In this document: positions 19,110 through 19,650 of the stretch, piece by piece | Position numbering within the stretch: the stretch's first letter is position 1 | Layout of the letters: every line of letters begins with the position of its first letter | Source of the DNA: a virus | Taxonomy: Duplodnaviria > Heunggongvirae > Uroviricota > Caudoviricetes | IMG/VR virus record: IMGVR_UViG_2880412407_000004 | Strand: one strand, 5' to 3' | Length of the DNA stretch: 55,013 bases | The notes under the pieces: model-generated | Told to the model about the DNA's origin: nothing | Seen by the model: only the letters and a program-made list of their open reading frames with translations | Database searches by the model: none | Made by a program: the position numbers and the translations under genes

Positions 19110-19239
19110 TTGGCTGCATAAATAATATTTTAAGTTGCAAGTTGGCTATTCGTAGGAATAGAACCTTAGGCATGCTGAATGCGTTTTCTGAACATTGTTT
19201 TATAAACTGTGTCTGCTTGCTGTTGTGATCCTGCTTTTA

Positions 19240-19352
19240 GTGATGGTGATGATGGATTTCACCAGCAGGATAATGTTGGTACTGACTGATGGCGCTCTGG
19301 TCTGCGGCATTGTGGTATTGCTGTGGCCGATGATGAAAGAACAGAATGAATA
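19240..19352 (+). CDS. Candidate small hydrophobic peptide (about 36 aa)
   Basis: Hand-translated (V)MVMMDFTSRIMLVLTDGALVCGIVVLLWPMMKEQNE; unsupported by homology. Confidence 0.2.
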
Positions 19353-19540
19353 ATTCTTGACTTTTTTGTTTACTGTTTATTAAAAAATCAACCGCATGGT
19401 GAATCCTCCTTGGAGGGGCTAAATGATCGAGTTTTAAGGGCACGTAGCGAGTTCTGTTTGATCATTGCAGAACTTAGCGGGAGGCGCCATGCGTACATCA
19501 CTAGTGTTATTCCTTTTATCATTTTCCTTGTGAGTTCTGG

Positions 19541-19566
19541 CTGCGCATTGCGCAGCCTTTTTTTAT
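19541..19566 (+). terminator. Intrinsic terminator
   Basis: GGCTGCGC-ATT-GCGCAGCC perfect 8-bp stem followed by TTTTTTT; preceded by 14-codon ORF MRTSLVLFLLSFSL. Confidence 0.6.
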
Positions 19567-19650
19567 GACCTGCCACTGGCAGATGGTCATCCTGTGATTT
19601 GATTCCGGTTCCGGCTTTTTAACTCTGTTCCTGTACACGGGAGAAATTCG

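Follow-up and report, generated by a model that had tools for sequence, protein, structure and literature searches.

The small RNA (sRNA) PasD2 of EPEC E2348/69, which occupies 172 nt at positions 741157–741328 of NC_011601, is an abundant RNA that came to light in Hfq RIL-seq; it was also seen on Northern blots, the probe for PasD being CATGCGCAGCCAGAACTCACAAGG (Pearl Mizrahi 2021, Sci Adv eabi8228, Table S6). In E2348/69 a coding sequence of DUF3927 size ends 40 nt upstream of it and an esterase coding sequence starts 86 nt downstream, while its RIL-seq partners include aceE, uspA, yhdW, tir, cesF and bfpB (Pearl Mizrahi 2021). The homologue in EHEC is EcOnc13 (Pearl Mizrahi 2021; Tree et al. 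2014). In phage 2B8, pasD lies directly upstream of a sialate esterase gene and near Q and LpxR, and the same work provides the link in the literature between the PasD sRNAs and STnc100, an sRNA of Salmonella and E. coli prophages (Zhu, Shabalina and Storz 2026, bioRxiv 10.64898/2026.05.13.724894). Moreover, of the RNA pairs that CsrA binds in EPEC, the most abundant one includes PasD2 (Faigenbaum-Romm 2026 preprint). The site at which such genes reside, downstream of pR′, is the ‘moron’ site described by Tree et al. (2014). A second described relative is TciB of phages P1 and D6, which belongs with DUF3927 (PF13064) and PHROG 1470; in phages of the P1/D6 type and in many lambdoid ones, tciB has an ATG or GTG start and shares sequence with the stop codon of the TerB-like gene tciA.

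Both types of gene are found side by side in the window, that is, the whole stretch of 55,013 nucleotides that was analysed. Positions 19110–19650 fall within the ‘moron’ site that a lambdoid prophage has in its late region, with the Q antiterminator on one side and the lysis genes on the other, and they contain two independent genes, a tciB-like gene and pasD2, both of them described before and raising no questions that the papers of 2021–2026 have not posed. The initial annotation had noted here a hydrophobic ORF of 36 codons, a signal-like ORF of 14 codons, a perfect 8-bp-stem intrinsic terminator and a CCTCC-TT-GGAGG palindrome, and had taken the segment for something other than spacer DNA. 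All four features are in the sequence, and the segment is indeed not spacer, given the DUF3927/TciB gene at 19195–19353 and pasD2 at 19394–19564. The explanation as a whole, in which a tciB-like gene is followed by a trans-acting sRNA with its own putative promoter and terminator, is very probably correct. The features on which it draws, together with their surroundings, are as follows.

16057–17016, minus strand: LpxR (record annotation and Pfam)
Between LpxR and Q: YlcG (record annotation and Pfam)
17493–18182: Q antiterminator (record annotation and Pfam)
18228–18249: tR′-like terminator
18351–19109: membrane protein of 252 aa (record annotation and Pfam)
19195–19353, plus strand: small membrane-protein gene of the DUF3927/TciB family, 52 codons, putative TTG start
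19357–19388, plus strand: putative sigma-70 promoter of pasD2, with −35 TTGACT at 19357–19362 and an A/T-rich −10 region, TATTAAAAAAT, at 19378–19388
19394–19564, plus strand: pasD2 sRNA gene, 171 nt, by identity to E2348/69 PasD2
19405–19416, plus strand: CCTCC-TT-GGAGG palindrome, the first stem-loop of the STnc100-type 5′ domain
19449–19475, plus strand: conserved (UUC) hairpin of the 5′ domain, in which GAGUUCUG (19449–19456) pairs with CAGAACUU (19468–19475)
19479–19492, plus strand: GGGAGG motif (19479–19484) and 3′ strand of the closing helix, CGCCAUGC (19485–19492)
19489–19533, plus strand: 14-codon ORF, MRTSLVLFLLSFSL, from ATG 19489 to TGA 19531–19533
19529–19534, plus strand: published PasD seed UGUGAG (Pearl Mizrahi 2021, Fig. 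S5, Table S7)
19539–19564, plus strand: intrinsic terminator of pasD2 from a terminator scan, with an 8-bp stem, a 3-nt loop and a T7 tail
19565–19590, plus strand: second, interrupted hairpin, ATGACC/GGTCAT and CTGCCA/TGGCAG (inverted repeats I23 and I24)
19651–21501: sialate O-acetylesterase pseudogene of nanS-p type (record annotation and Pfam)
Just beyond pasA: IS66 element

The order of the genes, LpxR, YlcG, Q, membrane protein, DUF3927, PasD2, sialate esterase and PasA, is that of E2348/69, being shared with prophage PP2 of that strain and with phage 434. The flanks of pasD2 are likewise the same as in E2348/69, with the membrane protein and DUF3927 upstream, the sialate esterase and PasA downstream, and Q and LpxR within 3.5 kb; the differences are that the U-tail is one T shorter in the window, that the esterase gene is a pseudogene here and that IS66 lies beyond pasA. 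The synteny given for PasD by Zhu et al. (2026), with Q and LpxR less than 10 kb away and the esterase gene next, is thus also that of the window, where the esterase starts at 19651. The segment of 541 bp shows 100% identity with E. coli 2014C-4423 and 99.4% with phage 434, phage 2B8 matches it at 97.6%, and 677 of 5,426 complete E. coli genomes carry at least 80% of it. About every eighth complete E. coli genome therefore has the segment, and several related copies of it are often present. Remnants of tRNA genes, which are frequently encountered from Q to stx, were looked for in the window with ARAGORN, and there are none. A BLAST search against phages showed, as a separate observation, that the spacer between esterase and holin is common to phage 434 and Stx1a phages. 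The second hairpin, at 19565–19590, folds at −10.8 kcal/mol (z = −2.4) and its position is that of the 5′ leader of the esterase gene.

The assignment of the sRNA rests on alignment, in which the window equals E2348/69 PasD2 from the −35 box through the terminator, the sole difference being a T7 rather than a T8 tail. This identity places an sRNA gene at 19394–19564, such that the earlier suggestion of a small RNA locus becomes the recognition of a particular, named RNA. The reverse complement of the published probe matches 19523–19546 in 23 of 24 bases, as its authors note likewise for PasD2, and the 5′ end of PasD2 that was estimated from published RNA-seq data maps to 19394. When both PasD copies of E2348/69 are compared with the window, the sequences of promoter, RNA body, seed and terminator are those of PasD2, PasD1 departing from the window at four substituted positions, by one additional T within the body and by its T8 tail.

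As to the start of the transcript, the promoter block does not differ among the loci of PasD1, PasD2 and phage 434 and hardly changes in the STnc100 loci of Evi and PPyecE; in its wider form, TTGAC/TT...TATTAAAAA, it is almost invariant when PasD and STnc100 loci are compared. Since this block is conserved while the 3′ end of the adjacent ORF carries indels, it can be argued that pasD2 has an independent promoter. A consensus scanner made no call for the pasD2 promoter, as there is no −10 hexamer with a T at position 6 at the correct spacing.

The 171 nt are laid out as a structured 5′ domain (19394–19492), a U-rich single-stranded tail that carries the seed, and an intrinsic terminator. The 5′ domain, of 99 nt, folds better than 200 of 200 shuffles (z = −3.2). 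It is closed by a helix in which GCAUGGUG (19394–19401) pairs with CGCCAUGC (inverted repeat I2), a helix that also includes the ATG of the 14-codon ORF. In an alignment of 20 family sequences the columns CGGGAGGC are invariant, the changes in the closing helix are all wobble-compatible (with the 5′ strand being fixed by the search pattern), and the UUC hairpin at 19449–19475 shows compensatory changes, AU/UA/GC and GC/AU, with PasD retaining the pairs. The palindrome, for which a 2-nt loop is impossible, amounts to a stem of 4 bp with CUUG as its loop and aligns with the first hairpin of the Rfam STnc100 consensus, C-G having become U-A on both sides in PasD. The minimum free energy fold of the single sequence differs from this family consensus of the 5′ domain, in that it pairs CCUCCU with the GGGAGG of 19479–19484. 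There is in addition an 8-nt repeat, GAGTTCTG, at 19449–19456 and 19532–19539, either copy of which can pair with CAGAACTT at 19468–19475 (I9 and I10).

The terminator consists of GGCTGCGC (19539–19546), a loop ATT, GCGCAGCC (19550–19557) and T7 (19558–19564). Its hairpin, at −15.9 kcal/mol, is equalled by 0 of 200 shuffles (z = −5.3), and in PasD1 the stem is kept through a U-A to U-G change. The perfect 8-bp-stem terminator of the initial annotation is therefore recovered by the scan and is pasD2's own. The accompanying statement that the segment holds strong hairpins is accurate for this structure, but not for the palindrome, which taken alone is unexceptional (−4.8 kcal/mol, z = 0.1).

The relationship to STnc100 lies in the 5′ part of the RNA and does not extend to the 3′ part. 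Shared are the 5′ end GCAUGGUGAAUCC and GGGAGG, apparently also the closing helix, the first stem-loop and the UUC hairpin, as well as the conserved promoter block and a position between variable moron cargo (tciAB, stx2AB or other) and the esterase gene; the STnc100-type EcOnc27, for example, sits downstream of stx2B. In contrast, the GGGAGG of PasD is not flanked by a CCGG...CCGG hairpin, the insert in the middle of the RNA is another one, and the 3′ module of tail, seed and terminator is unrelated; BLAST makes no connection between PasD and STnc100. The 20-sequence alignment, in which MAFFT misaligned the closing strand of PasD, suggests that PasD retains three helices, namely the closing helix, the first stem-loop and the UUC hairpin, with compensatory or wobble changes, and that it lacks the CCGG hairpin. 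The one relevant match of an Rfam scan, to the STnc100 model (RF02076), covers 19364–19568 with 44.1 bits (E = 3e-7), below the gathering score of 47; PasD1 scores 37.7 bits, and the true STnc100 copies in Evi and PPyecE 120 and 145 bits with the covariance model. Given the missing CCGG hairpin and the different 3′ module, PasD is best described as a divergent relative of STnc100 and no formal member of the Rfam family. The family can be viewed more broadly through 123 copies, consisting of the window and the viral contigs that carry GCATGGTGAATCC[C/T]CCT. Among these, the upstream gene is DUF3927 in 36, StxB in 6 and others in the rest, and the N-terminus of an esterase is encoded downstream in 66; in the copies sampled, at least eight different 3′ modules, that is, tails with terminators, are joined to the one constant 5′ domain.

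The convergent anti-sRNAs AgvB and AsxR occupy the same moron site downstream of pR′ (Tree et al. 2014). They are RNAs of 51–60 nt with a variable 5′ and a constant 3′ end, a layout that is reversed in PasD and STnc100. Phage PPyecE_EH1910 has an AgvB gene that is convergent with its STnc100 gene. Across 16000–23000 of the window there is no Rfam match to AgvB or AsxR at E <= 1, and a convergent anti-sRNA following the terminator was considered and set aside, the minus-strand version of the terminator having no U-tail.

Upstream of pasD2, the 36-codon ORF (MVMMDF...KEQNE), from ATG 19243 to the stop at 19351–19353, proves to be part of a real gene, although its length has to be revised: it is the C-terminal two-thirds of a 52-codon ORF of the known DUF3927/TciB family. 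Pfam DUF3927 (PF13064) matches residues 7–50 of the longer ORF with 53 bits against a cut-off of 25 (E = 3.4e-14), a span which means that the match begins 5′ of ATG 19243. The PHROG 1470 ‘TciB-like’ profile gives 63.4 bits with the same ORF, which is WP_000499454.1 (DUF3927 family protein) in PGAP and TciB in the phage 434 record. The homologues in phages Evi, PPyecE_EH1910 and D6 are 43–62% identical over open frames of 54–55 codons and have in common the core DFTS(R/K)...VL.DG.LV...VVLL.P; indeed, all five of the DUF3927 sequences compared (43–98% identity) are intact ORFs of 52–55 codons, with pairwise dN/dS values of 0.17–0.60, that is, under purifying selection. Judged by the Pfam and PHROG profiles, the alignment of homologues and dN/dS, the ORF is a real coding gene as a family. 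The protein resembles P1/D6 TciB, DUF3927 and PHROG 1470 in length (52–55 aa), in the two hydrophobic segments and in the core. Hydropathy places these segments on either side of a conserved DFTSR loop, such that the 52-residue protein most likely forms a hairpin in the inner membrane.

The way in which the gene is set up differs from that of the P1/D6 type. The start codon of tciB is GTG in Evi and PPyecE_EH1910 and ATG in D6, and it overlaps the tciA stop in each of these phages. In the window, tciA (TerB-like) is replaced by the gene for the 252-aa membrane protein, as it is in all 12 PasD loci examined, with a gap of 85 nt and a TTG start; the Shine-Dalgarno sequence of the tciA-coupled versions is lost and a stop codon lies two codons upstream. 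TTG 19195 is the only start that retains the first hydrophobic segment. With such a start, no recognisable Shine-Dalgarno sequence and a stop so close upstream, the translation and the N-terminus of the DUF3927 ORF are uncertain. Nothing on the function of DUF3927 was found in the literature searched, where matches to ‘tciB’ are unrelated, and neither DUF3927 nor the 252-aa membrane protein has a PADLOC match that would link it to a defence system, NCBIfam giving nothing useful.

The 14-codon ORF has to be seen in a different light. Judged from comparison with relatives it is an accidental frame over the U-rich tail and seed of the sRNA, and no gene. The equivalent ATG frame is 14 aa in PasD2 and 36 or 26 aa in PasD1, where an additional T puts the sequence out of frame beyond codon five, and 111 STnc100 relatives have unrelated frames at this place, which are 2–49 aa in length and often run through the terminator. 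On poor conservation in relatives, which the initial annotation had itself named as a ground for refutation, the signal-like peptide is refuted. The ‘signal-like’ hydrophobicity arises from the U-rich stretch before the terminator, the GGAGG before ATG 19489 belongs to the family-invariant GGGAGG, and the ATG itself is inside the conserved closing helix. An ORF of 14 codons is, moreover, to be expected by chance, the 7 kb around it containing 122 ORFs with 20 codons or more.

These properties bear on two readings in which the ORF would be translated. The initial annotation had likened the arrangement to a leader-peptide attenuator, in which translation of the 14 codons would set the terminator at 19539–19564, and hence the read-through into nanS-p. 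Such a function finds some encouragement in the GGAGG that lies 4 nt upstream of the ATG, in the ORF stop 5 nt before the terminator stem, and in the alternative pairing that the repeat GAGTTCTG offers with CAGAACTT at 19468–19475. It is nevertheless extremely unlikely, since PasD1 has the ORF with a frame shift and the STnc100 relatives all have unrelated ORFs in its place, so that there is no conserved leader ORF, and since ATG 19489 is buried in the conserved closing helix. A check of alternative RNA structures, which the initial annotation had proposed, yields only the single pairing of CAGAACU (19468–19474) with AGUUCUG (19533–19539); it touches just the first base of the terminator stem, and so there is no antiterminator. 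Moreover, PasD1 is the same RNA with a holin gene ~400 nt downstream and no esterase gene there to be attenuated, and the RNA accumulates as a discrete species with partners in trans (Pearl Mizrahi 2021). A dual-function RNA, with PasD2 being both an sRNA and the template for a hydrophobic peptide of 14 residues, is very unlikely too. The Shine-Dalgarno-like GGAGG upstream of the ATG would suit it, and RIBOseq coverage (RCV) of the STnc100 copies in EDL933 ranges from 0 to 3.2, the sizeable values on some of them making it possible that ribosomes have some contact with this RNA family. The peptide, however, is not conserved even between PasD1 and PasD2, its hydrophobicity results from the U-rich tail, and both of the apparent initiation signals have another explanation, the GGAGG in the invariant GGGAGG, which holds a CsrA-type GGA, and the ATG in the closing helix.

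Two further readings concern the ORFs as such. The possibility of a small toxin locus, also raised by the initial annotation, would here take the form of a type I toxin–antitoxin-like pair, with the DUF3927 peptide as membrane toxin and the downstream RNA as antitoxin. The product is small and hydrophobic, at 52 aa, and in 36 of 36 DUF3927-linked loci examined the sRNA gene comes 33–41 nt past the ORF stop. Yet the RNA is on the same strand and has no overlap with the ORF, the duplex between the PasD tail and tciB mRNA is equalled by 30 of 40 shuffles, and no PADLOC match is returned. Each of the two parts, furthermore, is widely found on its own: 87 of 111 STnc100 copies have no DUF3927 upstream, and tciB of phage D6 has no downstream STnc100 match at E <= 0.1. 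Translational coupling of tciB to the TerB-like tciA in most phages points instead to a two-protein module, and a toxin–antitoxin pair is hardly credible. Finally, the ORFs annotated over pasD2 might themselves be real. The OL657226, NZ_CP027454 and NC_011601 records contain, respectively or between them, CPT_434_70 of phage 434 (a 62-aa ‘putative membrane protein’ on the plus strand, over pasD2), a PGAP pseudogene on the minus strand at ~19434–19674, and the minus-strand E2348C_1013. That any of these is a gene is next to impossible: the plus-strand frame has no Pfam match and is 52 aa here against 62 aa in phage 434, a difference due solely to one base in the T-run of the terminator, while PGAP itself marks the minus-strand ORF as frame-shifted and incomplete, and the sRNA accounts fully for the stretch.

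With a tciB-like gene and the PasD2 sRNA as the preferred reading, a mode of action can be proposed. Transcription of pasD2 would start from its own sigma-70-type promoter just past the tciB stop and end at its own intrinsic terminator, giving, by analogy with the identical published transcript, an RNA of ~171 nt. The placing of a U-rich tail and the seed UGUGAG directly before a terminator hairpin and U-tail is the typical layout of an Hfq-binding RNA; in EPEC, PasD2 is Hfq-bound (Pearl Mizrahi 2021) and abundant in CsrA complexes as well (Faigenbaum-Romm 2026 preprint). The seed UGUGAG is the complement of CUCACA, a motif that the RIL-seq targets carry (Pearl Mizrahi 2021), and PasD2 most likely pairs in trans with mRNAs that contain CUCACA, one such site lying in the neighbouring lpxR. 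Indeed, the reverse complement of CTCACAAG lies at 19527–19534, covering the seed, and CTCACAAG itself is found in lpxR of the same prophage at 16845–16852 on the minus strand, which is the site given for E2348C_0684 in the RIL-seq motif table (Pearl Mizrahi 2021). The duplex of the PasD tail with nt 100–250 of lpxR has an energy of −25.6 kcal/mol, against −17.5 ± 2.7 kcal/mol for shuffles, and beats 40 of 40 of them; these RNAduplex energies are informative with the single-stranded tail only, the full 172-nt RNA giving meaningless whole-length duplexes. In the lysogen, the pasD2 terminator probably insulates the esterase and lysis genes from pasD2 transcription, while after induction, from general lambdoid biology, Q-modified polymerase coming from pR′ would pass it.

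A more tentative proposal concerns the constant 5′ domain of PasD and STnc100, which might be a docking scaffold for CsrA, with the exchangeable 3′ tails bringing different seeds. This is a possibility, if on balance a rather doubtful one. The parts of the scaffold may be the closing helix, the first stem-loop and the invariant GGGAGG. An MNGGA-type motif, CGGGA, at 19478–19482 is invariant in the family alignment and is consistent with this proposal, as are the occurrence of at least eight 3′ modules on one 5′ domain and the presence of PasD2 in the top CsrA-bound pair. PasE, an unrelated sRNA, was recently shown to act as a CsrA guide; as a member of the present family it was rejected, being an unrelated RNA of 56 nt. 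Were the proposal true, PasD2 and its many prophage relatives would be a modular family, delivering CsrA (and Hfq) to particular mRNAs or acting as CsrA sponges.

The practical value of these results is in the annotation of pasD2. Its score is just under the Rfam STnc100 threshold, with the consequence that automatic pipelines leave pasD2 unannotated, and spurious ORFs are placed over it instead, namely the ‘membrane protein’ of 62 aa in phage 434 and, in RefSeq, pseudogenes on the minus strand. The published contacts of PasD2 include those with the virulence mRNAs tir, cesF, bfpB and perB, and with CsrA, and it is on account of these contacts that its recognition matters for the input of prophages to the regulation of EPEC and STEC.

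The DNA itself carries the marks of a lambdoid prophage. Across the whole window, the only match above an Rfam gathering score is to the lambda cIII thermoregulator element, the presence of which confirms this identity. Directly after the antiterminator gene Q lies a promoter-like site followed by a terminator with its T-run, and the pair is the expected pR'/tR', yielding a short leader RNA upon which Q acts; the annotation of phage 434 places a terminator at the same position.

6957-7015, minus strand: lambda cIII thermoregulator element (RF01804, 88.5 bits)
18166-18194: promoter-like site, TTGCAA-17-TATACT
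18228-18249: terminator and T-run

With regard to the targets of PasD2, the lpxR gene of the prophage itself carries, at about codon 55, a sequence complementary to the region of the PasD2 seed, and the same site appears in the PasD2 RIL-seq target listing under E2348C_0684. The duplex between the PasD tail and lpxR has a predicted energy of -25.6 kcal/mol, as against -17.5 ± 2.7 kcal/mol in shuffled sequences.

16845-16852, minus strand: seed-region complement CTCACAAG, inside lpxR (16057-17016)

The seed may in turn be subject to the folding of the RNA. The 8-mer GAGTTCTG is present twice in PasD2, once within the 5'-domain hairpin (19449-19456) and once at 19532-19539, where it overlaps the seed and reaches one base into the terminator. 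Since both copies are complementary to CAGAACTT (19468-19475), an alternative fold could, judged from base complementarity, occlude the seed. No sequence variation at this GAGTTCTG/CAGAACTT repeat was found among the PasD copies compared.

In public records the PasD RNA is overlaid by protein-coding features, namely a PGAP pseudogene, CPT_434_70 of phage 434 and E2348C_1013 of the EPEC strain E2348/69, all of which are probably mis-annotations. The length of the plus-strand ORF over the RNA is set by that of the terminator T-run.

19434-19674, minus strand: PGAP pseudogene
19410-19568, plus strand: ORF over the PasD RNA
Phage 434 locus, 3301-3489: CPT_434_70
E2348/69 locus, 2301-2699, minus strand: E2348C_1013

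Immediately 3' of the PasD2 terminator, in the leader of the nanS-p-type sialate esterase gene, sits an interrupted hairpin (-10.8 kcal/mol, z = -2.4), and segment 19535-19650 is also found beside esterase genes without PasD. The esterase gene is split in two (19651-20193 and 20254-21501), PGAP recording an internal stop.

19565-19590: interrupted hairpin, ATGACC/GGTCAT and CTGCCA/TGGCAG
19651-21501: sialate esterase pseudogene, nanS-p type

Besides pasD2, the window holds a second published sRNA gene, pasA, to which the Northern probe matches with 0 mismatches (21660-21684). Identity to E2348/69 extends through the flank, from 21502 to about 21766, and the arrangement agrees with the 'pasD2-esterase-pasA with transposases' layout of Zhu et al. 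2026. Homology to E2348/69 stops where an IS66 element starts, some 32 nt ahead of the 5' end of pasA, and the -35 region of pasA may therefore, from its sequence context, be disrupted.

21651-21735, minus strand: pasA, identical to E2348/69
Near 21767: IS66 junction, placed by the break of homology to E2348/69

Beyond this prophage, the neighbours of the related STnc100 sRNAs are varied. The cargo 5' of STnc100 copies is tciA-tciB (n = 24), StxB (n = 6) or other genes; in phage D6 (P1-like) a partial match lies just upstream of tciA, not downstream of tciB. In PPyecE_EH1910, STnc100 is faced by a convergent AgvB gene, a partner that has no counterpart in the window.

Phage D6 locus, 858-978: partial STnc100-like match (39.6 bits, model positions 31-147)
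PPyecE_EH1910 locus, 2858-2919, minus strand: AgvB gene (96.5 bits)

The STnc100 family is modular, in that its 5' domain, which is nearly constant and some 100-130 nt long, is followed by any of at least eight 3' tails and terminators unrelated to one another in viral contigs (L009, L020, L015, L024, L041, L056, L068, L037, L072, L075 and others).
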